From the NCBI GenBank assembly GCA_000004695.1, contig CM000151.3, positions 3,744,001-3,808,000 on the forward strand: a DNA stretch of 64,000 nucleotides. Reading direction: 5' to 3'. Source of the DNA: Dictyostelium discoideum (lineage: Eukaryota). Below the pieces are notes generated by a model. That model saw only the letters and a program-made list of their open reading frames with translations. It made no database searches and was not told the DNA's origin. Shown in pieces: positions 15,990-31,900 of the stretch. Made by a program: the position numbers and the translations under genes. The stretch's first letter is position 1; each line of letters opens with the position of its first letter.

Positions 15990-17568
15990 ATGAATAGACC
16001 ACCACAAGACGTAGAATTTAAAGCTGGTAAAGCTAAATTAACAGGTACAACAGTAACATCAGATTCAAGAAAGGGTTACTTAAAATTTGGTGTTGTATGT
16101 TTTTTAAAGAGAAAAAAAAAAAAAAAAAAAAAAGCAACACAATATAATACAATAAAATAAAATAAAATAAAATAAATAAAATATAATATAACATAACATA
16201 TAATAATATAATAAAATAAAATGCATATTTATTAACATTTTTTAATTATTTATTTAAATAATAATTTATATATAGACACCAGAAGGATTAACATGTGTTC
16301 AATGGAGACCAAGAGATTCATCAGCATATGAAGATGAATTTTATTTTGCACCAGGTGAATCAAAATTTATCAAAGTACCTGCATGTAAAACTGGTAGAAT
16401 GTATTACTTAAACTTTTCAGGTTCAGATCAAAAGGAATTCTATTGGTTACAAGAAGCAAATGTAGAAGGTGATGCTAAAATTGAAAAAGCACTTAAAGTT
16501 ATTGAATCATATATTCCAGGTAATTTTTTTTTTAAATTAATTAATTTATTTATTGGTGTTTTATTTTTATATACATTTTTTTTTTTTTGTTTTTTTTGTT
16601 TATTATTTTTTGTTTCTATGAAGGTGTGAATATACATAAACGATAATAATAGCACTCAAATACTTACAACACTTATAAATATATTCTTTTAATAGACTTG
16701 TAAATAATATAAAATAAAATGAAATATGTGAAAAATTAAATAAAATAAAATAAAATAAAAATAATAATAATAATAATAATAAAAATAAAACAAAATTTAT
16801 AAATAGTAATAATAAAGATGAAAACAAATGGAACAACAGTGACAATAATGGAAAAAAAAATAAAAAATCATATAACTAAATAATGTTAATAGACCCACCT
16901 TTTATTATTTTTATATAAAAAATCAAGAACTTTTAATTTGTTTTATACTCTTATTATTGAAAGTACTAATGAATCTTTTTTTTTTGGTTTTATTTTATTC
17001 TTTTTTTTTTTTTTAATGCACTTTTCTTTTTCTTTTTCTTTTCCTTTTTTTAGATGATGATGATGATGAAGAAATGGTAGTTGATACACCACCACCAACA
17101 ACAACAATAAAACAAGAACCACCTAAAAACCCAACAATAAATGAAGTTTCACTAAGTCAACCAAAACCAACTACAACTCCACCACCATCAGCAACCAATT
17201 TAGATTTTATTAAAGATCTTTTTTCAAATTTACCAACACAACCAAAACAACCACAAATTACATTGGGTAAAATATTGACAGCAGAGAATTTAATACCATT
17301 CTTAAGAGAGAATCCAGAGATTAAAAAAGATTTAATTCAATATTTACCAGAGGAATATCAAAAGGATGAGAATATGATTAATGAAGTTTTACATTCTGCT
17401 CAATTTTTACAATCAATTGAAACCTTAGATTATGCAATTCATGAAGGTCATGGTCCTGAAATTGTCTCTCTTTTAGGTTATGAACCATCAATTGCTTCTC
17501 AAAGAGGTGTTGAGGGTTTCTTAACAAATATTCAAGAAGGTACAAATAAAAAGAAAAATAATAAATAA
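15990..17568 (+). CDS. adrm1: proteasomal ubiquitin receptor Rpn13/ADRM1, 3 exons
   Basis: Exons 15990..16094 (donor GTATGT), 16276..16519 (donor GTAATT, phase 1) and 17054..17568. N-terminal Pru domain: [35 protein letters not shown]|[15 protein letters not shown]...[25 protein letters not shown], which aligns with human ADRM1 ([44 protein letters not shown]). The C-terminal DEUBAD-like region reads [22 protein letters not shown]...[17 protein letters not shown]. Confidence 0.85.
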
Positions 17569-17740
17569 TTAATTAAAATTGTATTATCAAAAATAAAAAA
17601 AAAAAAAAAAGAATAATAAATTCTAATTTATTTGGGTTTTATATTAAAACTCTTTTTTTTTTTTCTATTTGTTTACTATAATATATTTACACAAAGGAAG
17701 GTGGTTGTTGATGTTACATATTTTTTTTTTTTTAGTATTC

Positions 17741-19698
<1,958 letters not shown>

Positions 19699-20399
19699 CC
19701 TCTTTTATTTTTTTTTTCTTTTTTTTTTATTTATACTGGAAAAATTATATTACTTTTTATTTAATAAAGTGTGTGAGTGTGTGTATATGTGTGTATATAT
19801 ATTTTGTATCTATGATATTATTATTTATATTGTGTGATGGTAGATTAAAAAAACAAAAATGTTACACACTAAAATTTAATTATTTAAAAAAAAAAAAAAT
19901 AAAAAAAAAATAAAAAATAAAAAAATAAAAAAAGTTATAAGGAGTTGGTGTGAATGAAAACAAAAAAAAAAAAAAAAAAAAATTTAGGTAAAAATTGTGG
20001 TGTTATTAAAACAAAATTATTAAAAAAAAAAATAAATAAATAAAATTATTAAGAATTTAATAACCAAAAAAAGTGTAAATTACAAATTATAGTTTTATTT
20101 TCCAAAAACACACAAGATTGATATGTTGAAAACCACTAACAACTATAACTCCTTTTAATGTTTGGAAAAAAAAAAAAAAACAAAACAAATTATAGTAATA
20201 AAAAAATCACAAAAAAAGATATATTGCGTGTGTATTTATTTATTTATTTTAAATTTGAATAAGAATAGCAAATAGTTTTTTTTTTTTTTAAAAATTTTTC
20301 TAATTTCTTTTTTTCTAATTTCTTTTTTTATTTTTTTTTTATTTTTTTTTATTTAAATTAATTTAATTTTAAAAATTTTTTTTTTTCTTGAACGATTTC

Positions 20400-20431
<32 letters not shown>

Positions 20432-21351
20432 ATTTTTTTTTTTTTATTTTTATTTTTGTTTGTTTTTTATATTTGGTTTGGATAAAAATAATTTTTTTTT
20501 TGAAAATGATTTATTGGTGGGTGAAAAAATTGTATTGTTATAATAATCAATTTGATGATCAACTATTAATTATGCAACCAATTTTTTTTTTTTTTTTTTC
20601 TGTGAACCCACTCTTTGTAAATGTGACCCACCAAAACGCACCAATGATATAAAACTAAAATTACATTATTGTTGATTTATTTTTAAAATTTTATAAATAA
20701 TAAAAAAAAAAAAAAAAATCAGCATTTTGTGCTCTCTGTTATCGAATTCGCACCATCACAATTTTTTTTTTTTTTTTCATTTTCCAAAAAATAAAGATTT
20801 ATTATTATTATTATTATTATTATTAATAATTAATTATCAATCTCCTCCCTCAGGCAAATGAATTTTTTTTATTTTTATTTTTAATTTTTTATTTTTAATT
20901 TTTTATTTTTAAATATTTGAATTTTAGTTTAAAAGATAGAATATAAATAATTTTGTTAATGCACCAACGATTGAACAAAAAATATTTTAATAAATTCACC
21001 ATTAGTGAGAACAGCACTGACTTACCTCCACTATCACATACCATTGATTCTTTTTATATTATTTTATTTTATTTTATTTTTATTTTATTTTAATTTTATT
21101 TTTATTTTTTTTTTTTATTTTTATTTTATACTATTTTTATTTTATTTTATTTTATTTTTATTTATTACATTTTTATTTTATTTTAAAGATAATTATTTGA
21201 ATTTTAGAAAAAAAAAATTTAGATAAGATTACTCTTTTTTTATTTCATTTACAAATTGTAAAATTGGGATTTATTTTTGGTTGGTTTAATATTTAAATTA
21301 TAATTTAATTTTTGTAATTTTAATTACAACCACAATTGTTTGAACCTCCAG

Positions 21352-22699: not shown

Positions 22700-24654
22700 T
22701 AAAGTGAGAAAAAAATTTAGGAACTTCGGACGAAAGTTGAAAATTTTTTTTTTTTTTTTTTTTCCGGCAAAAATGAAAAATATTTAATAAAAAAAAATTG
22801 AGCGAATATAGCCACTTCCACAATATACATATAAAAGAGCTTTATTTTTTGTATTTGTTAATTTTAATTAATATTGAGATATAGTAAATTTTGAGGCTTG
22901 TCAACAACGAGAATCGATGCCTGAATCTGAGGAAAAATAAAAATCTATGGTTTACCGGTGACTCGACCAATGAGTAATGGTAGACGTAGAATTAAATTCT
23001 AAGTTGAAATCACTTGATCCGGTTTATCTACGGGGTCATTAAGGTACCAAAAATTAAAATTACTGAAAAAAAAATTTTAAAAAATTTTCAAAAATTTTTT
23101 TATATGGAGAAATTTTTTTTCGGAAAATCGAAAAAAATTCTGCGCGTAAATCGTCTCGTTAAAATTTAATTCTTTTTGAGTATGTTAATGATCTATCGTG
23201 TATCTAACTTCTGTATTTCGCTTTTTGCACTCAATTTTTTTTTATTAAATATTCAATCGAATCTTTGGCGGGTGGTAAGTGAAAAATCACCATTTTTCCC
23301 AAGTTTTTTTTGGTGTAAGGAGGCTAAGTAAAAAGTCCCTCGTGTTCACTCGACCGACGGTTCCTAGTAAGCTTTCCAGAGCATTTGGGATAATCTGACA
23401 CAAGATCGTATTTTAAAGGGGGGTACTGGACCCCCTAAAAAATTCGCCAAGTTGACACACCAAAAACAGTGTTTTTTCGTGGATTTTTCAAGGAACTTTA
23501 TAGATATTTTAATTAACGAAATTGAGTGAATGTAGACCCATAAAAGTAGCAACTAGACTCAATGAGAGATATTCTGACACATTTTACCAAATAGCTTATG
23601 TGCATATAGTGAATATAAAGACTGGGGACGAAAAGTGAAAATTTTCCAATAAATTCAAAAATTGGTGTATTTTAGCGAAAAATTTAAATGGTGTCGTTCC
23701 TTATCAATCAAAGTTTTTTTAAAAGATAGATATTTTAATTTTACACTTACTGTTACCTCACGGCAGAGTCAACCAAGTAACACAATTTTTTATTTAACTC
23801 GGAAGTTCGTAAAAATATGACATTGGATCCTCATTTACAGATTACAGTGGTTTTATGGTGAGTCGACCGTGAGGTAACTGTAATTAGTTATATTCTTGGC
23901 GATGTTAATGTATTTTTCCGTTTTTGCCTAGGGGGTCACGATCAAAACTTATTAAAATTTTGGCGCCAAAAAATTTTTCATATAAAAAAAAAAAAAATTA
24001 ATGTGAGAAATTTCAATTTGGAGGTTCGAAAAAAATTCGAAAAAAATATGTACTATTTTTTTATTCCAATGATTTTTAGATATAATATAGCTGAAAATGA
24101 GGGCTATCTTTTGTATGTCTTACTTTTTAAATGGCAAGTTAAAAAAAAAATTGGTTTACAAAAAACTTTCTCAAGTACCCCCTATTTTTGGGGGTAAAAA
24201 AGTGCAAAATTTCACTGTAACTTTCATAAATATTACTCCTATTTAGTTCACTCGACCGACGGTTCCTAGTAAGCTTTCCAGATGTACTGACACAGCCTCG
24301 AAACAACGCGCGTAGTCTGGCGGGTCAAATAGACCCCTAAAAAAATTCTGAAAAAATCGCTGTTTTTTGGTGTTTTTTCGTAGGTGATAACTTTTCATTA
24401 AAATAAAAGGAATATTACTCGTAGGATTTAAAAACGTATATGTTTTTAAACATTCTCAAATTTATAGAAAATTTATAGGAAATAGGAACAATTTACTTAT
24501 GAATGATTTTTAAATATAAAAACCCCGATCCATTTTTGAAAAATCGATTTTTTTTAAATTTTTAGCGAAAAATATTTAAATTTTTAAAATGACTTTAAAT
24601 TTGAACCGGACTTTGATTTTTATAGATTACTAGTCATTTGACATCAACACATCA
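22700..24654. repeat. unclassified non-coding complex repeat with about 0.9-kb internal periodicity, truncated by the assembly gap
   Basis: Moderately GC-rich non-coding sequence with internal direct repeats. cactcgaccgacggttcctagtaagctttccaga occurs at 23346 and 24249; ggtgactcgaccaatgagtaatggtagacg (22958) pairs with ggtgagtcgaccgtgaggtaactgtaat (23868); ggggtactggaccccctaaaaaattc (23431) pairs with ggcgggtcaaatagacccctaaaaaaattc (24320). No ORFs. Confidence 0.6.
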
Positions 24655-24754
24655 NNNNNNNNNNNNNNNNNNNNNNNNNNNNNNNNNNNNNNNNNNNNNN
24701 NNNNNNNNNNNNNNNNNNNNNNNNNNNNNNNNNNNNNNNNNNNNNNNNNNNNNN
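24655..24754. other. assembly gap (100 N)
   Basis: Run of exactly 100 n characters. Confidence 1.
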
Positions 24755-25287: not shown

Positions 25288-25396
25288 ACACATTAATACC
25301 AATACAAATCGATTCGTCTAACTATCTTATAATTTATAAGTGCCATGACCAATTTTCAATAAGTAAAAAAAAAAAATGAAAAAAATTCGTTGAACT

Positions 25397-25600
25397 CACA
25401 GCGAAGAAAAAACCACCTTTAAATTCGCTTTAAATTAAATTTAAATTTGCTTTAAAGTCCTGAATTAAAGCAATTTTAAAGGTAATTTTAAAGGTAATTT
25501 TTAAGGTTACTTTAAAATTACCTTTAAAATTACCTTTAAAATTACCTTTTTAATCGCTTTAAAAGCGAGGTCCTGAGTTCGAAGCCGTTATTTAACGGAT
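25397..25600 (+). repeat. terminal-type repeat copy A
   Basis: See the composite element; starts at cacagcgaagaaaaaacc and contains (ttaaaggtaatt)n-like sub-repeats. Confidence 0.7.
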
Positions 25601-25640
25601 AAATTTTTTAAATTTTTTTTTTTAATTTTTCAAAAATTAC

Positions 25641-25713
25641 CAAAAGGGATTCGATCCCCCGACCCTCTATTAAAGGGTAGTCTCATCAACCATTACACCA
25701 TTTGATTGCTTTG
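25641..25713 (-). tRNA. tRNA-like degenerate sequence (possible tRNA pseudogene or element-associated tRNA remnant)
   Basis: Minus-strand sequence ..TGGTGTAATGGTTGATGAGACTACCCTTTAATAGAGGGTCGGGGGATCGAATCCCTTTTGG.. has a D-arm like tRNA-Gln/Glu genes (TGGTGTAATGGT), an anticodon-type hairpin (ACCCT-TTAATAG-AGGGT) and a T-arm-like GGGGGATCGAATCCC. The acceptor stem does not pair, so this is not a functional-looking tRNA. Confidence 0.25.
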
Positions 25714-25789
25714 ATGAAAAATTTAAAAATGATAGAATATTTTATCCCCATTTTTTTGTTCTAAAATTAGATCTTTTTTATTAAAAACC

Positions 25790-26131
25790 TTTAATTTATG
25801 TTTAAAGGAAATTTAAATTCACTTTAAATCTACTTTAAATCCTATTTAAAATTAATTTAAAATAAATTTTAAAGGTATTTTTAAATGTCTTAAAAATTAT
25901 CTTAAATTTACCTTAAAAATCACCTTTAAAATCACCTTTAAAATCACCTTTAAAATTGCTTAAAAATTTATTTTAAAGCAAATTTTAAAGGCATTTTTAA
26001 ATATCTTAAAAATTACCTTAAAAATTACCTTAAAAATGAATTTTTTAAACGCGGCTTTAAATTCAATTTAAATCCAATTTAAATCAACTTTTCTTTAAAT
26101 TTGCTTTAAAGGTGCATTTTTCTTTGCTGTG
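25790..26131 (-). repeat. terminal-type repeat copy B (inverted relative to A)
   Basis: 25790..25995 is the reverse complement of 27700..27920. 25995..26131 resembles the reverse complement of the start of A, ending ..tttgctttaaaggtgcatttttctttgctgtgc. Confidence 0.7.
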
Positions 26132-26259
26132 CTTATTTACATAACTTTTACATTTTTACGTAACTTTTTCTTTTTTTTTTTTCTTTTTTCCAATTTTCTT
26201 TTTTTTCGGTTGGAAATTATAGGATTTTAAAAAAAAATTAAAAAAATATTATAAAAAAA

Positions 26260-26549
26260 ATGACTCACAATAATTCTGCATCATTTGAAACACCAAATAG
26301 AAGTGGTAATTATGTAAATAGATCATCTTTAACTTCACCAACATCACCAATAACACCAATCACATCTCTTATTTTAAATCAAACTGATACCTCCATAGGT
26401 CCACAACGTACTGTTAGAAGACAACAAAGACCTCAAAGACCAAATGCAAGTCATCCACCAACAACAAATATTGTAGAAAAAATATTGGTGTATGAAACAT
26501 TGCACAGAAATTGTGTTTCTCAATACTATGCAACTGGTAAGGTAAGATA

Positions 26550-26594
<45 letters not shown>

Positions 26595-27233
26595 AAGAGA
26601 CTAATTAAATTAAATAAACAAAAATAATACATAAGATTTCCTCTCGTTTTATTAGGACCTGTATATTAAATGCTGGCGGTACAAATTCAAATGAAAATAA
26701 AGTTGTTCTATCCAAATTGGTTAAATGGGTCAACAATAAACGTGGTAACACACGTATTAAAGCCCTAAATACCCTTAGACTTTTAGTTAGAAATAAAGTA
26801 GAACAGTTCAGCGAGTTGCTCTCTCAGGTTCCACCATTAATGGAGTATGAATCGGTATGTAAAAAAAAAAAAAAAATAAAAAATAAAAAAAAAATAAAAA
26901 AAAAAAAAAAAAAAAAATAAATTATTAATAATTTGTTTTTTTAATTTTTTAATTATTATTTAGATAACTCCTTTTGATTTGGCCACTCTTATTATCGATA
27001 CAGTTACCTTAGAAGCTTTTGACTCCGATCCTTTTGTAAAGTTCTTAGTGTCTCAATGCTTTACAATTGAAGAAAAAGAATGGTACAGCGGTTCCAAACC
27101 TCTTATTTCTTTAATAGTTAAAGCATTGCGTGGTGTTTCTCAAAAGTTCATTGACTCTCCTGATGAACTTACTTACACTGAAAAGGTTGCTTTTGAATTC
27201 ACTTCAATACCTCTTTATGCTCCACTAAATTAA
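26260..27233 (+). pseudogene. host-like spliced ORF set inside the repeat island (3 exon-like segments; exon 1/2 phase mismatch)
   Basis: Segments 26260..26541 (MTHNNSASFETPNRSG...QYYATGK), 26656..26854 (..ILNAGGTNSNENKVVLSKLVKWVNNKRGNTRIKALNTLRLLVRNKVEQFSELLSQVPPLMEYES; donor GTATGT) and 26964..27233 (ITPFDLATLIIDTVTLEAFDSDPFVKFLVSQCF...LYAPLN*). Exons 2 and 3 join in phase. No donor at 26536/26541 gives the phase that exon 2 needs, so either exon 1 belongs elsewhere or the gene is disrupted. Confidence 0.3.
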
Positions 27234-27419
27234 ATCGTTTAAATAAAAAAAATTAATATGATTTCACATACTCAACTTTAATTTTTTCTTTTTTTTTTAA
27301 ATCTTTTTTTAATTTTTATTTTAAATTATTTTTTTTAATTTTTATTTTTAAAGTGATATTATTAATATATCTTATCAAGTTAACTTTATAATATAAATTT
27401 ATAAATGCACTTTTAAATT

Positions 27420-27700
27420 GAATTTTATAAATATAATTAATAAGAATACTTAATAAGTGTACTTACAAAGAGTACATTATAATTATAATTAGTAATTACG
27501 CTTAATAATTATACTTAATAAGTATATTTAATAAGTATACTTAATAAGTATACTTAATAAGTATATTTAATAAGTATACTTAATAAGTATACTTAATAAG
27601 TATATTTAATAAGTATACTTAATAAGTATACTTAATAAGTATATTTAATAAGTATACTTAATAAGTATACTTAATAAGTATATTTAATAAGTATACTTAA
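27420..27700. repeat. 13-bp satellite (taataagtatact / taataagtatatt), about 20 units with a 39-bp higher-order period
   Basis: Direct reading. Related palindromic variants tacttaataagtattacttattaagtatacttattaa occur at 28040..28082. Confidence 0.9.
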
Positions 27701-27925
27701 TAATATTTAAAAATGCCTTTAAAATTTGCTTTAAAATAAATTTTTAAGCAATTTTAAAGGTGATTTTAAAGGTGATTTTAAAGGTAATTTTTAAGGTAAT
27801 TTTTAAGATAATTTTTAAGATATTTAAAAATACCTTTAAAATTTATTTTAAATTAATTTTAAATAGGATTTAAAGTAGAATTAAAGTGAATTTAAAGTGA
27901 ATTTAAATTTCCTTTAAACATAAAT
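27700..27925 (+). repeat. terminal-type repeat copy B'
   Basis: Reverse complement of 25790..25995. Confidence 0.7.
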
Positions 27926-28149
27926 ATTATTTTTTTCGTTAAAAAAAAAAAATTCCAAAATTTTTTATTTTTTTTTGTGTTAAAAAAAAATTCCTAAATT
28001 TTTTTTTTTATTGTATTTTTTTTCATCACACCATTATAAATTCTATGTACTTAATAAGTATTACTTATTAAGTATACTTATTAATATATATTAAAAAGAG
28101 TACTTGGATTTAAAGGTGCTTTAAAGTGTTGATTTTCGCCGCTGTGTGG

Positions 28150-28960
28150 ATTGGTATCGACTCTACTGATTGTTTGGTCAATACTTCTTGGAATGTTCCC
28201 AGTACTTGAGGAAACATATGACGATGATGACGAGGAACTTGAGCTTGAATCATCGGATACCAAGTTGCTGATCTCCAGATTGGGAAGATCAGTATTATAG
28301 AAACCTTCTTCGAACTGGATGAGTTCATCTTCTCCAGTATAGAAGGCAAAAGAATGGGTGGTGGAAAGGCCAGACATTACTTATATTGACTCCAATCGAG
28401 GTGGAGTGCATTCATTCTGATTGTTGAGTAGTTGTTCGTTTGATGGTTGAGGTGAGATGCGAACAGATCCATCTGTATTTGACCGAATTGAAGTTGCCAG
28501 TTGTAACTCTTGATTACTCTGGTCGATGATATGTGATTCATCTCTGAAAGACGACTGAGGTGGTCGGCTTTTACATTATTCATAATATATATATATATGA
28601 TAATATAAATTAAATTTTTAAATCTTATTCATAATATATATATATATATATATGATAATATAAATTACCAGCCTTATTCTTAATCACAAGCTTGTGTTCG
28701 AGTTTACTTAAAAAATACTACAAATATGTATGTTGTAACTCTTCCACTAAAGAATCCAGCTCTCCACGGTATGCTTGCTGTAGTTCTGCCTCATGAGCCT
28801 GGAGACGTTCCTCAGGAGACAAGCTATGGCTGAACGAATTAGACAGAATAACACCACGAGGGATACCGTAGTGGGATAGGTTAGATGCCTTCATAACAAA
28901 CCAGAAGTTTAACAGCCAACTCACTACCATGTCATTGTTAGAGACTCAAAACTAAATTAA
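28150..28960 (-). pseudogene. decayed DIRS-like (tyrosine-recombinase retroelement) fragment: RNase H C-terminal motif plus recombinase N-terminal motif
   Basis: Minus-strand translation gives ..NNVKADHLSRLSEMNHISSTRVIKSYNWQLQFGQIQMDLFASHLNHQTNNYSTIRMNALHLDWSQYK*. NxxADxLSR is the conserved end of retroelement RNase H domains. DLFAS.LN.Q...Y........DW matches, from memory, the N-terminus of DIRS/Ngaro-type tyrosine recombinases (DLFASRLNxQLPxYxSWxPDPxAxxxDAFxxDW). The reading frame is broken by an AT-rich tandem duplication at 28585..28680 and by stops. GC is higher than in the surrounding DNA. Confidence 0.5.
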
Positions 28961-29288
28961 TTTAAAGTTAGTTTGAGCTCAACAACATAACAAATTCGCG
29001 CATCTCCATGTAAAAATATTTCATTTAATTTTTGTTTTTTATTTTTTATTTTTTCAGTCAAAAAATAAAATTAAAAAAATTAAATAAAATTAAAATTTAA
29101 AAAAATAATAAAAATTCTGATTTTCGGTTTAGTTAGATAACGCCCTTACATTCAATTATCTGTTTTATGTATGTTTACTTTTATGATGTTAGTCTTTCAC
29201 TCTTTCTATCCTTCATATGGAATGACATTAGATTAAAGATTGGACTAGTTCGGTTAAAGATTGAACAAATGTGACAATGGATTGAAGA

Positions 29289-30480
29289 TTAGTGTGAGAA
29301 ACTTTTACAGTCATCGTATCCAGACGCCTTGTGGTCAATACGACCATTCTTAACAACCAGACTGGTGATCTCATTAATCAGCGTTTTATCGTGAGTAACA
29401 CGACCAGCGCGTTTAGCCGCTTCAGGTAGGACTTCACCGTACAGTGTCAACGCGATTCGGCTGTAGTAACGAACCCAAACTTGTTACGCACGTCATCGTA
29501 GAAATAACTACCACGAGGACGCAGTGGATTGTTAACCATAGCAGCTGCATTTTTATCCACCTTCACCTCTTCAACAATCCAGTTAAAAATATGTTTGAAT
29601 GGATCAATACCTTGTAACGGCGAATTTAATCAGGTTAGTTTCATTACAACCCCCTGCATCTACTGTAACCATATCACGAATGTAAGTAAACACTAAACCA
29701 ATGGCATCTCTACCGATCGCTTCCGAGGGATCCATCCCTAGTAGAATGTGTGCCCCTTCGTTAATTTCTCATGTCGATCTTTTGGTATGTGTCAGCCGAT
29801 ACTGTAACCGTCTTTGGAACTCAGTCCACAGTGGGTCACGTTCATAGTCACGGATAATGTTGTTTAGCTCAGTTGACAGAGGTGAACGTAAAGAACCTGA
29901 TGTCCAGCGGTTAAAGAAGTCACGGTCTGCTTCTTTAATTTTAACACCGGAGTTCTGCAATGCGTCACGCAGCCATTCTTTATCCAAACCAAGCTGACGA
30001 TAACTCCACGTCCCGTTAATCATAATAAGCGCACCTTTCTTACCGATGAGTTTGATTAATACGGTACGTAGTTCTTCCTGGTTTCTCAGGTCTATGATGG
30101 TCTTTAACCCAAAGATAAGACGGCAGTAGATCGCGAATCTCTTTTAATCGGTCGAAGTTAGACCGTCAGTAGTGCGTCATCCTTCGTAATCAGGTTAATG
30201 CTGATGGTATCTGACGAACCAGACTTACCGGTCTGACGGGGATTAACATGTAGTCGATGTGGTTATAGAAGCTCCAGATCAAACTCAGGTTAGCACGGTT
30301 TGCTTTAAAAGGACGCGGCGTTGCACCCGCAGAGAATCTAACGACCTCACGATAGTAATACCATGGGTTGAATCGACATTCGATAGCGAATTAATTTCTT
30401 ATGACAGATCGGTGGCAAATGGATCCACTGACTTAATTCCTGTTGAAGGAGACTAAGCATGAATGTACAGTTCTCAACAC
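29289..30480 (-). pseudogene. T4-type phage terminase large subunit (TerL, gp17-like) gene, frameshifted and decayed
   Basis: Minus-strand frames, joined across at least four frame breaks, give a P-loop ..HVNPRQTGKSGSSDTISINLITKDD.., then FDRLKEIRDLLPSYLWVKDHHRPE, ..LIKLIGKKGALIMINGTWSYRQLG.., ..ILLGMDPSEAIGRDAIGLVFTYIRDMVTVDAGG.., ..GSYFYDDVRNKFGFV.. and the C-terminus ..VVKNGRIDHKASGYDDCKSFSH*. From memory these correspond to T4 gp17 blocks: Walker A [48 protein letters not shown], the nuclease motif ATLDCSEGRGQDYHALHI and EGYHDD. Similarity is from recall only. Confidence 0.55.
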
Positions 30481-30595
30481 CCATTTCTTTATAAAGATTT
30501 AGAAATTCAAGTTAATCAAATAATATTAATATTGTATTTGTATTCAAAGTGAAAAACTAAATTTTTCGAAAAACGAAAAACTTCGTAAAGTATCA

Positions 30596-30665
30596 AAATA
30601 CTTTACAAAAATTCAAAAAAAAATTCAAAAAAAAATTCAAAAAAAAATTCAAAAAAAAATTCAAA
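30596..30665. repeat. (aaattcaaaaaaaa)n 14-bp tandem repeat, 5 units
   Basis: Direct reading. Confidence 0.9.
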
Positions 30666-30689
30666 AAAAAAAAATTTAAAAAAATTTAT

Positions 30690-30903
30690 CCGTTAAATAA
30701 CGGCTTCGAACTCCGGACCTCGCTTTTAAAGGATTAAAAAGCTAATTTTTAAGGTAATTTTAAAGGTATTTTTTAAGGTGATTTTAAAGTAAACTTAAAA
30801 ATTACCTTTAAAATTACCTTAAAAATTGCTTTAATTCAGGACTTTAAATTCGCTTTAAATTAAATTTAAATTTGCTTTAAAGGAGGATTTTTCTTCGCTG
30901 TGG
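30690..30903 (-). repeat. terminal-type repeat copy A' (inverted copy of A)
   Basis: Starts ccgttaaataacggcttcgaactccggacctcgctt and ends ..tttgctttaaaggaggatttttcttcgctgtgg, the reverse complement of the start of A. Confidence 0.75.
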
Positions 30904-31900
30904 AATAAGCTGAGTTATTTCGAAAAAAGTTTATTTTTTTTTGACAAATTTTGCATGTTTTTTTTTTTTTTTTTTAATAAAACACATTATTTAAAACAAA
31001 AATTTTAAATAATATAAAACAATATTTGTTAAGACCTATCGTAGAATTAAATTTGGTTGTATTTATGGAGAAATAAAGAAAATATAAAAAAAAATGAACT
31101 TCGAAAAAAAAAAAAGGAACTTCAAAAAAAAAAAACTACATAAAATTTTTGTTTTAAATAATGGGGGACCTATCAGTGAATAATTGAATTAATTTTGAAA
31201 AAAAAAAGTTATTTTGAAAAAGATCGAGTTATCCCGGAAAAGATCAATCTTTTCGCGAAAAATTTTTCATTGGCCATATTATTTTTTTTTTTTTTAATTT
31301 TTTTCATTTATTCACAATTAAAATAAAAAATATAATAAATAAATAAATAAATAAAATAAATAGTATGATTGACAAAAAAAAATCAAAAATACCAGGGCTC
31401 AAATAAAGGATTTATTTTTTATATGTAGTTTTTTTTTTTTAAGTTCCTTTTTTTTTTCGAAATTCATTTTTTTTTATATTTTTTTTATTTCTCTATAAAT
31501 ACAACCAAATTTAATTCTACGACAGTCTTTACAAATATTGTTTTATATTATTTAAAATTTTTGTTTTAAATAATGTGTTTTATTAAAAAAAAAAAAAAAA
31601 AAAACATATGAAAAGTGAAAAATTTTTCAAAAAAAAATAAACTTTTTTCGAAATAACTCAATTTATTCCGGGATAACTCGATCTTTTTCAAAATAACTTT
31701 ATTTATTCAGAATTAATTCAATTATCCACTGATAGGTCCATTATTTAAAATTTTTGTTTTAAATAATGTGTTTTATTAAAAAAAAAAAAAAAAAAACATA
31801 TAAAATTTGAAAAAATTTCGAAAAAAAAAACTTTTTTTGAAATAAATGAATTTATTCTGAGATAACTCGATCTTTTTTAAAATATGCTGAGTTAATTATA
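30903..31900. repeat. nested inverted and direct repeats of a ~300-bp AT-rich module (non-coding)
   Basis: The module gagttat(t/c)tcgaaaaaagtttatttttt..aataaaacacattatttaaaacaaaaattttaaataatataaaacaatatttgt.agac..tcgtagaattaaatttggttgtatttatggagaaataa occurs at 30903..31080 (forward), 31440..31640 (reverse) and 31740..31880 (partial). Segments 31140..31330 and 31620..31740 form a further inverted pair. Confidence 0.7.

Follow-up and report, generated by a model that had tools for sequence, protein, structure and literature searches.

The interval 28150-28960 of a stretch of Dictyostelium discoideum AX4 chromosome 2 (64,000 nucleotides, hereafter the window) was flagged in an initial annotation as a relic of a DIRS-like retroelement. 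It is instead a non-functional mosaic, in which a scrap of the retrotransposon DIRS-1 is joined to the pseudogene of a jumbo-phage terminase; the phage DNA was probably captured at a chromosome break. The surroundings are repeat-rich and intergenic. The initial annotation had extended the retroelement over the entire interval, but homology to DIRS-1 is limited to positions 28147-28577, and the upper third is phage-derived. As judged from its sequence, the locus is incapable of transposition, DNA packaging or methylation.

Base composition sets the locus apart. The G+C content in the window is 17-30%, and a G+C-rich island at ~28-31 kb, which includes the flagged interval, is conspicuous against its surroundings. 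Read along the minus strand, the order of the pieces is a truncated end of an element resembling a miniature inverted-repeat transposable element (MITE), the terminase remnant with a long terminal repeat (LTR) inside it, AT-rich filler, the DIRS-1 piece and a MITE-like terminus. The flagged interval itself is made up of DIRS-1 sequence, filler, the 3' part of the terminase and, at 28936-28960, the edge of the solo-LTR-type insertion. The features concerned are as follows:

28147..28577, minus strand: internal DIRS-1 fragment of 431 bp from open reading frame (ORF) 2, placed by nucleotide alignment to an intact DIRS-1 in locus L006
28239..28496, minus strand: methyltransferase-like (Dam family) core, a Pfam PF05869 match inside the DIRS-1 fragment
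28578..28675, no strand: AT-rich junction filler with a ~37-43-bp duplication, matching neither flank
28676..28935, minus strand: terminase large-subunit pseudogene, 3' part, phage residues ~587-673 of 706 (blastn/tblastn)
28936..29309, no strand: solo-LTR-type insertion of 374 bp with TG...CA ends, inside the terminase pseudogene between phage residues 587 and 588
29310..30511, minus strand: terminase large-subunit pseudogene, 5' part, phage residues ~26-588 (blastn/tblastn)

The DIRS-1 piece was defined by comparison with a near-intact copy of the element (L006, positions 17180-20743). That copy contains a gag-like ORF, a match to RVT_1 (E=3e-19), a stretch ending in ...GFFNVKADHLSRLSEMNHKSSSRVTKSYN, an ORF matching Dam (E=2e-10) and a product matching integrase. 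When two of its ORFs were joined over RNase H, matches to RNase_H and RT_RNaseH were obtained (E ~5e-4 to 9e-4, below gathering) that ended just before NVKADHLSRL. Its domain order agrees with the published organisation of DIRS-1, in which ORF2 encodes reverse transcriptase, RNase H and methyltransferase domains and an overlapping ORF3 encodes the tyrosine recombinase (PMC5633606). Alignment of the window to positions 19417-19877 of L006 showed 416 identical nucleotides out of 431 (96.5%) with gaps excluded, and 90.2% identity with the gap included. At the DNA level, the homology starts with AATGTAAAAGCC (28577) and ends with ...ACCAATCCA (28147). These limits enclose the last ~10 RNase H codons (NVKADHLSRL, 28548-28577), a linker and about two-thirds of an inactive Dam/PCIF1-like methyltransferase domain.

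Much of what had first been read from this part of the interval stands. A DIRS-type fragment does begin at the C-terminal ADxLSR motif of RNase H, which here reads ADHLSRL, and similarity to retroelements, well above what chance would give, is evident both in a Pfam Dam match (E=7e-10) and in the DNA identity to DIRS-1. The two minus-strand peptides that had been singled out, NNVKADHLSRL and QMDLFASHLNHQTNNYSTIRMNALHLDWSQYK, lie in one ORF (28377-28583), which reads MNNVKADHLSRLSEMNHISSTRVIKSYNWQLQFGQIQMDLFASHLNHQTNNYSTIRMNALHLDWSQYK. As had been suspected, the frame is broken by a stop: a single in-frame TAA occurs in the fragment at 28377-28379, past which the same frame reads CLAFPPPILLPSILEKMNSSSSKKVSIILIFPIWRSATWYPMIQ... 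to 28113. The fragment has also suffered a 30-bp in-frame deletion, with CAACTG microhomology on both sides. At the protein level, it is 65-96% identical to D. discoideum DIRS-1 protein fragments (P0001-P0012), and a search of a collection of 5.8 billion proteins returned only D. discoideum proteins, in this same range of identity, which are fragments of a multi-copy element; one of these relatives carries a Phage_integrase match and another a Dam match. No further DIRS-1 homology, be it to the reverse transcriptase, the inverted LTRs or the internal complementary region, was found across the 64-kb window. The DIRS family member present is thus assigned by its sequence to DIRS-1 itself, as a fragment and not a complete mobile element. 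Taken on its own, such a scrap is ordinary and a matter of routine repeat annotation.

The second peptide had been taken for the N-terminus of a DIRS/Ngaro tyrosine recombinase. A joined reading of 157 aa gave a match to Pfam Dam (PF05869) with E=7.3e-10 and 39.2 bits, above the gathering score of 28.1, over residues 30-115, together with a weak match to PCIF1_WW; the intact DIRS-1 gives the same Dam and PCIF1_WW matches. Since Dam is matched by both the window and the intact copy, and since methyltransferase follows RNase H in ORF2, the peptide QMDLFASHLNHQ... ('QMDLFASH...') is the start of the Dam/PCIF1-like methyltransferase domain and not part of a recombinase. The catalytic DPPY-type position reads AFPPP in the window and in intact DIRS-1 alike, so that the motif of an active Dam-type N6-adenine methyltransferase (DPPY) was found in neither; the DIRS1 methyltransferase domain has been placed in the PCIF1/Dam clade and reported to be inactive (PMC4738411). 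In the D. discoideum DIRS-1 copies P0003 and P0008, the recombinase lies further downstream of the methyltransferase. For DIRS-1 fragments that include recombinase parts (P0003, P0008, P0010 and P0011), alignment to the window stops at 28125-28147, and the tyrosine recombinase is therefore absent.

Beyond the filler, the sequence is that of a phage gene. Positions 29150-30560 are 76% identical at the nucleotide level, over 80% of their length, to Erwinia phage pEa_SNUABM_54 (MW879341), and also match the terminase large-subunit genes of other jumbo phages. Within the flagged interval, 28688-28938 continues the same terminase gene colinearly, and 28676..28935 showed 72-75% identity by blastn and 63-70% by tblastn to the terminase of pEa_SNUABM_54 (QXO10957) and to an uncultured phage sequence (P0014). 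Using the 706-aa phage protein as a tblastn query, residues 26-192, 288-450, 482-588 and 587-669 were recovered in three minus-strand frames running from 30511 to 28688. Nucleotide identity across the colinear blocks is 72-81% overall, reaching 79-81% in the best blocks with one uncultured phage contig. There are 592 terminase homologues at E<=1e-10, the top ones being 706 aa long; the closest protein relatives are 706-aa proteins on contigs of up to 272 kb, at 71% identity. The PHROGs assignment is terminase large subunit (phrog_2, phrog_32359). Related terminases occur in Klebsiella, Serratia and Pseudomonas jumbo phages, and the closest cultured relative infects Erwinia. The phage terminase had no sequence relative among solved structures.

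The relic amounts to ~1.46 kb (28676-30511 minus the 374-bp insertion). Its 5' part contains in-frame stops, a ~330-bp deletion near 30048-30098, a 93-99-bp deletion at ~29620, and 24-bp and 1-bp deletions. An intact terminase ORF with ATPase and nuclease domains was not found, the remnant being spread over three frames and interrupted by stops, deletions and the insertion. Excluding that insertion, its G+C content is 43.4%, compared with 47.5% for the phage gene and ~17-25% for nearby DNA. The flanks are Dictyostelium repeats and genes, and the other ORFs of two phage loci (L001 and L002) match nothing in the window, so no neighbouring phage gene accompanies it. These sequence comparisons show the donor to be a jumbo bacteriophage related to Erwinia phage pEa_SNUABM_54, from which the gene was acquired horizontally.

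The terminase relic was subsequently entered by a Dictyostelium repeat. The 374-bp insertion has the ends TGTAAAAG...CTCTAACA and is bordered by a perfect 5-bp target-site duplication, ATGAC (28931-28935 and 29310-29314), which is present as a single ATGAC in the phage. It aligns end to end with relatives of 76-83% identity in three DIRS- or repeat-rich D. discoideum loci. LTR lengths reported for this species are 390 bp for Skipper-1, 208 bp for Skipper-2 and 265 bp for DGLT-A, and 10 Skipper-1 solo LTRs have been described (PMC5006619). Among the LTR families of the species, the length of the insertion fits only Skipper-1, and the insertion is probably a Skipper-1 solo LTR. A recognised group I or II intron was considered as well, but there was no Rfam match in the window at gathering thresholds.

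Independent sequence data place the mosaic in the chromosome. Assembly GCA_054883475.1 matches window positions 38962-24755 with 99.70% identity over 14,208 bp, across all junctions, and contigs from two other sequencing runs are 100% identical at the locus. A contig of run SRR26869267 (L011) covers 29269-30580; it shares its upstream flank and LTR edge with AX4 and differs by 8 substitutions (~0.6%). It keeps 24 bp, 99 bp (phage residues 451-481) and 1 base, the last undoing a frameshift, all of which are deleted specifically in the AX4 lineage; it is still a pseudogene. The other assembly shows 4 mismatches over 14 kb; since ~0.6% divergence exceeds this, the L011 allele may come from a diverged lineage or a sister species. 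We conclude that the locus is real and old, since independent assemblies agree, an LTR with its target-site duplication lies inside the relic, and a less-decayed allele exists.

Decay of the relic has been AT-biased. With substitutions polarised using two phage sequences, the pseudogene lineage showed 76 GC>AT and 37 AT>GC changes, compared to 86 and 113 in the phage lineages (odds ratio 2.7, p=6e-5). The changes are distributed over the three codon positions as 33/32/74, intermediate between a selected gene and neutral drift. These data suggest, very roughly, ~4-5% neutral divergence since integration, a figure comparable in magnitude to the 3.5% by which the DIRS-1 piece differs from the intact copy.

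Both ends of the DIRS-1 piece could be placed at base level. At its upper end, DIRS-1 homology begins at 28577 and phage homology stops near 28676, leaving 98 bp of AT-rich sequence without homology to DIRS-1 or to phage. Tandem Repeats Finder detected a duplication here (28576-28684, period 49, 2.2 copies, 80% matches). The initial annotation was right that an AT-rich duplication exists, but its view that this insert disrupts the retroelement ORF does not hold, because the duplication falls beyond the DIRS-1 homology and has unrelated sequences on its two sides. It is filler at the join of phage-derived and DIRS-1-derived DNA. The lower end was located by alignment to intact DIRS-1: intact copies read ...CCAATCCA|AATTCAACAACG, continuing towards the recombinase, and the window reads ...CCAATCCA|CACAGCGGCG, so that DIRS-1 breaks at 28146/28147. 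The fragment therefore runs directly into a CACAGCG terminus (28132-28146, minus strand), as had been noticed. This terminus, a variant of that of the complete unit at 25397-26131, recurs over 98 bp with 92% identity in locus L008. Since its flanks there are unrelated, 28146/28147 is a true element boundary. Three MITE-like repeats are relevant:

27400..28146, minus strand: MITE-like repeat whose outer terminus CACAGCGGCGAAAAT (28132-28146) truncates DIRS-1; the inner boundary is approximate
25397..26131, plus strand: complete MITE-like unit of 735 bp with inverted ends CACAGCGAAGAAAAA / CACAGCAAAGAAAAA, the reference for CACAGCG termini
30655..30902, minus strand: truncated MITE-like copy, first ~248 bp, upstream of the terminase pseudogene, 86-90% identity

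The identity and order of the pieces and their junctions at base level are thus established. To account for this arrangement, we propose that the phage DNA came from phage-infected bacterial prey of the amoeba and became incorporated when a chromosome break was repaired by end joining, either along with a stray piece of DIRS-1 DNA or beside one. The AT-rich filler would mark the join between the two. After arrival of the phage DNA, the terminase remnant received an LTR retrotransposon, of which a solo LTR was later left, and the MITE-like terminus cuts DIRS-1 off ahead of the tyrosine recombinase. DIRS elements in D. discoideum are almost confined to centromeres (PMC2665215), and a lone 431-bp internal scrap on a chromosome arm therefore fits passive capture better than transposition.

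Several points weigh against this reconstruction or limit it. The evidence for the capture step is compatible with joint as well as with separate arrival of the phage and DIRS-1 pieces, and it would accommodate either insertion of the MITE-like element into DIRS-1 or the landing of the pieces beside that element; across the 64-kb window, DIRS-1 does not resume beyond the MITE-like element. The divergence of ~4-5% is a rough figure. The closest known phage has only 71% protein identity, and the donor is therefore unsampled. The name Skipper-1 was given from length, termini and target-site duplication only. At L007, a product matching RT_RNaseH lies 2.7 kb from a relative of the LTR, with degenerate sequence between them; neither integrase nor chromodomain was recovered near that relative, and the L007 plus strand decays after RNase H. 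A gag/protease on the L007 minus strand, with an LDTGS motif recognised by eye, was considered as a link to Skipper, but Pfam found nothing. Since the gag/protease has no Pfam match and the plus strand decays after RNase H, the Skipper-1 name stays provisional.

Among other histories, the one that survives best is sequential: a larger DIRS-1 already stood at the site, phage DNA and, separately, the MITE-like element inserted later, and deletions removed the rest. Transposons of D. discoideum commonly nest in and fragment one another (PMC2665215), and several other repeats flank the locus. We nevertheless regard this history as unlikely, given that the window holds no other DIRS-1 sequence, that DIRS-1 is reported almost exclusively from centromeres (PMC2665215), and that at least two independent large deletions, ending precisely at the junctions, would be needed.

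There is a small chance that a single chimeric molecule brought both the terminase and the DIRS-1 piece into the chromosome, either as a template-switch cDNA or through ligation of two free DNA fragments at one break. In that event the locus would preserve, in fossil form, a case in which a retroelement assisted the capture of DNA or RNA from a virus of the bacteria on which the amoeba preys. A specific form of this idea is that the DIRS-1 reverse transcriptase switched template from DIRS-1 RNA to phage terminase mRNA, and that the chimeric cDNA (5'-terminase...DIRS-1-3') was integrated. The two pieces are co-oriented in the sense direction and terminase lies upstream of DIRS-1, which is the outcome expected if the template had been switched during minus-strand synthesis, and DIRS-1 makes extrachromosomal cDNA (PMC5633606). 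Against this, co-orientation has a prior of one-half, ~100 bp of non-templated AT-rich filler stands at the join, phage mRNA would have had to reach the amoeba cytoplasm, and the DIRS-1 piece is internal, without anchoring at a priming site. We consider such a retro-transfer improbable.

It is very improbable that all of 28150-28960 is one DIRS/Ngaro-like relic comprising RNase H and a recombinase N-terminus, with its ORF broken by a duplicated AT-rich insert. The ADHLSRL motif, the DIRS-1 identity of 28147-28577 and the terminus junction at 28146/28147 all agree with that proposal. It fails on the second peptide, which is Dam-like, and on the missing recombinase, as well as on the colinearity of 28676-28935 with the 3' end of phage terminase. 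Moreover, DIRS-1 homology stops at 28577, before the duplication, and 28578-28960 aligns to no DIRS-1 copy examined.

Two gene models overlap the mosaic, both currently annotated as 'hypothetical protein' in AX4:

28081..28377, minus strand: DDB_G0274763 model, 98 aa, off-frame DIRS-1 methyltransferase region running into the MITE end, exact match to XP_643870.1 / Q556E0
29769..30484, minus strand: DDB_G0274377 model, 124 aa, two exons, from terminase-pseudogene frames (P0143 sequence)

That either or both are functional proteins domesticated from phage or retroelement sequence is highly improbable. Both are annotated, and GCA_054883475.1 also has models here (P0134, P0146), but exon structures differ between the assemblies (P0143 versus P0146; P0133 versus P0134), and the models bypass frameshifts and stops by splicing and take in small portions of the parental domains. 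In addition, DDB_G0274763 reads DIRS-1 out of frame and continues into the end of the MITE-like element, and the indels that distinguish the alleles do not, in effect, preserve codons. The two models are most likely spurious, and are candidates for retirement or for relabelling as pseudogene or repeat.

Finally, an artefact of the AX4 assembly, with the phage-like DNA stemming from contaminating food bacteria or phages of these, or from a chimeric clone, is virtually excluded. D. discoideum is grown on enterobacteria and an AX4 assembly gap lies 4 kb away, but an independent assembly shows the identical arrangement over 14.2 kb, as do contigs of three other sequencing runs. The phage DNA moreover harbours a Dictyostelium repeat with its target-site duplication, and the divergent allele L011 and AT-biased substitution speak against an artefact as well.

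The motif CACAGCRNNGAAAAA of the MITE-like repeats around the locus has 4 instances in the window, where 0.24 would be expected, and all of them mark the end of a repeat. The complete unit at 25397-26131 has inverted 15-mers at its ends and internal 12-mer arrays and hairpins; no obvious target-site duplication was found at its ends. Four more copies of this 735-bp unit, at ~95% identity, are present in L005 (neighbouring DNA in the other assembly), and the truncated copy at 30655-30902 is 86-90% identical to the left arm of 25397-26131 and to the L005 copies. The element at 27400-28146 contains a 12-mer array and a 13-mer array. The latter, inside the element that abuts DIRS-1, is very regular (27501-27703, CTTAATAAGTATA, 15.6 copies, 94% matches). 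Near-perfect AT-rich palindromes of AATTTTAAAGGT-type 12-mers were seen inside the MITE-like elements at 25468-25547, 30740-30830 and 27740-27860. The hairpins resemble generic microRNA (miRNA) precursors far below Rfam thresholds (best 40.6 bits, gathering 94). The family is possibly thug-S; thug-S repeats in D. discoideum have been reported as hosts of multicopy miRNA loci.

Other interpretations of these repeats were discarded. Stretches with a tRNA-derived look, recognised by eye from GGTTCGAATCC-like T-arm motifs (25640-25709 on the minus strand, 25566-25587 and 30705-30735), gave no tRNA with ARAGORN or Rfam. The region 25396-28149 is not a single transposon with inverted ends, being made up of the 735-bp MITE-like unit, a host gene (26260-27233) and a second related element. 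Likewise, for a composite element between the identical inverted 15-mers at 25397(+) and 30902(-), there was no evidence of movement as a unit, and it would contain the host gene. That gene, between two MITE-like elements, is apparently a normal three-exon gene with a 256-aa product in the other assembly and no Pfam match.

Further features were noted in the window. A 767-bp structure at 30903-31669, with inverted arms of ~245 bp (30903-31145 and 31418-31669, ~90% complementary), adjoins the truncated MITE end and may be another small foldback or MITE-type element. The gap in the AX4 assembly is a run of N at 24654-24753, where GCA_054883475.1 has at least 4 copies of the 735-bp element in both orientations (L005 14170-20855); the gap was probably left unclosed because of these multiple copies. 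At the start of the window, positions 1-1000 show extreme strand asymmetry (GC skew -0.70, AT skew +0.51) with period-3/9/12 repeats, and are probably a long trinucleotide-repeat coding tract typical of the D. discoideum genome.

The value of the locus lies in the phage relic beside DIRS-1, a datable, allele-polymorphic jumbo-phage gene in the reference strain of a model bacterivorous amoeba. It provides direct physical evidence, of a kind rarely left behind, that the DNA of viruses infecting prey bacteria is able to enter the germline-equivalent genome of a phagotroph and become integrated there. It also offers a natural substrate for measuring neutral decay, in terms of AT-biased substitution and deletion bias, in a eukaryotic genome that ranks among the richest in A+T. 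Its importance is limited in that the locus is without apparent function. A search of the available literature found no description of a phage terminase relic in D. discoideum, and the relic appears to be a so far unreported, moderately interesting example of phage-to-eukaryote DNA transfer.

Compared to DIRS-1, the founding tyrosine-recombinase retrotransposon with its gag-like ORF1 and inverted LTRs, the fragment ends its RNase H with an identical motif and likewise has the inactive Dam/PCIF1-like domain after it. It differs in representing ~9% of the 4.8-kb element, in lacking reverse transcriptase, recombinase, LTRs and internal complementary region, and in carrying a stop and a 30-bp deletion. 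It also sits on a gene-bearing chromosome arm, whereas DIRS-1 elements are otherwise found almost exclusively in centromeric DIRS clusters. The insertion in the terminase resembles Skipper-1 solo LTRs in its TG...CA termini, its 5-bp target-site duplication and the presence of relatives in DIRS-rich contigs; it is 76-83% identical to the relatives found, and was set beside Skipper-1 by published description and not by a named reference sequence. Like the terminase large subunits (TerL) of Enterobacterales jumbo phages (QXO10957; uncultured P0013-P0016), the relic is colinear with residues ~26-673 of 706, with up to 71% protein identity. Unlike them, it resides in a eukaryotic chromosome and has frameshifts, stops, ~450 bp of internal deletions, an LTR inside and no companion phage gene.

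Relics of horizontally acquired bacterial or phage DNA are a known component of eukaryotic nuclear genomes, as in 'you are what you eat' transfers and in the capture of foreign or organellar DNA at repaired breaks. The terminase relic shares with them a short, single-gene, non-functional foreign fragment, a foreign base composition, a repeat-rich intergenic site in a bacterivore and neutral decay. It differs from such transfers in that the donor is a lytic-type jumbo phage and not a bacterium or endosymbiont, in its direct joining to a retroelement fragment, and in the availability of a less-decayed allele.

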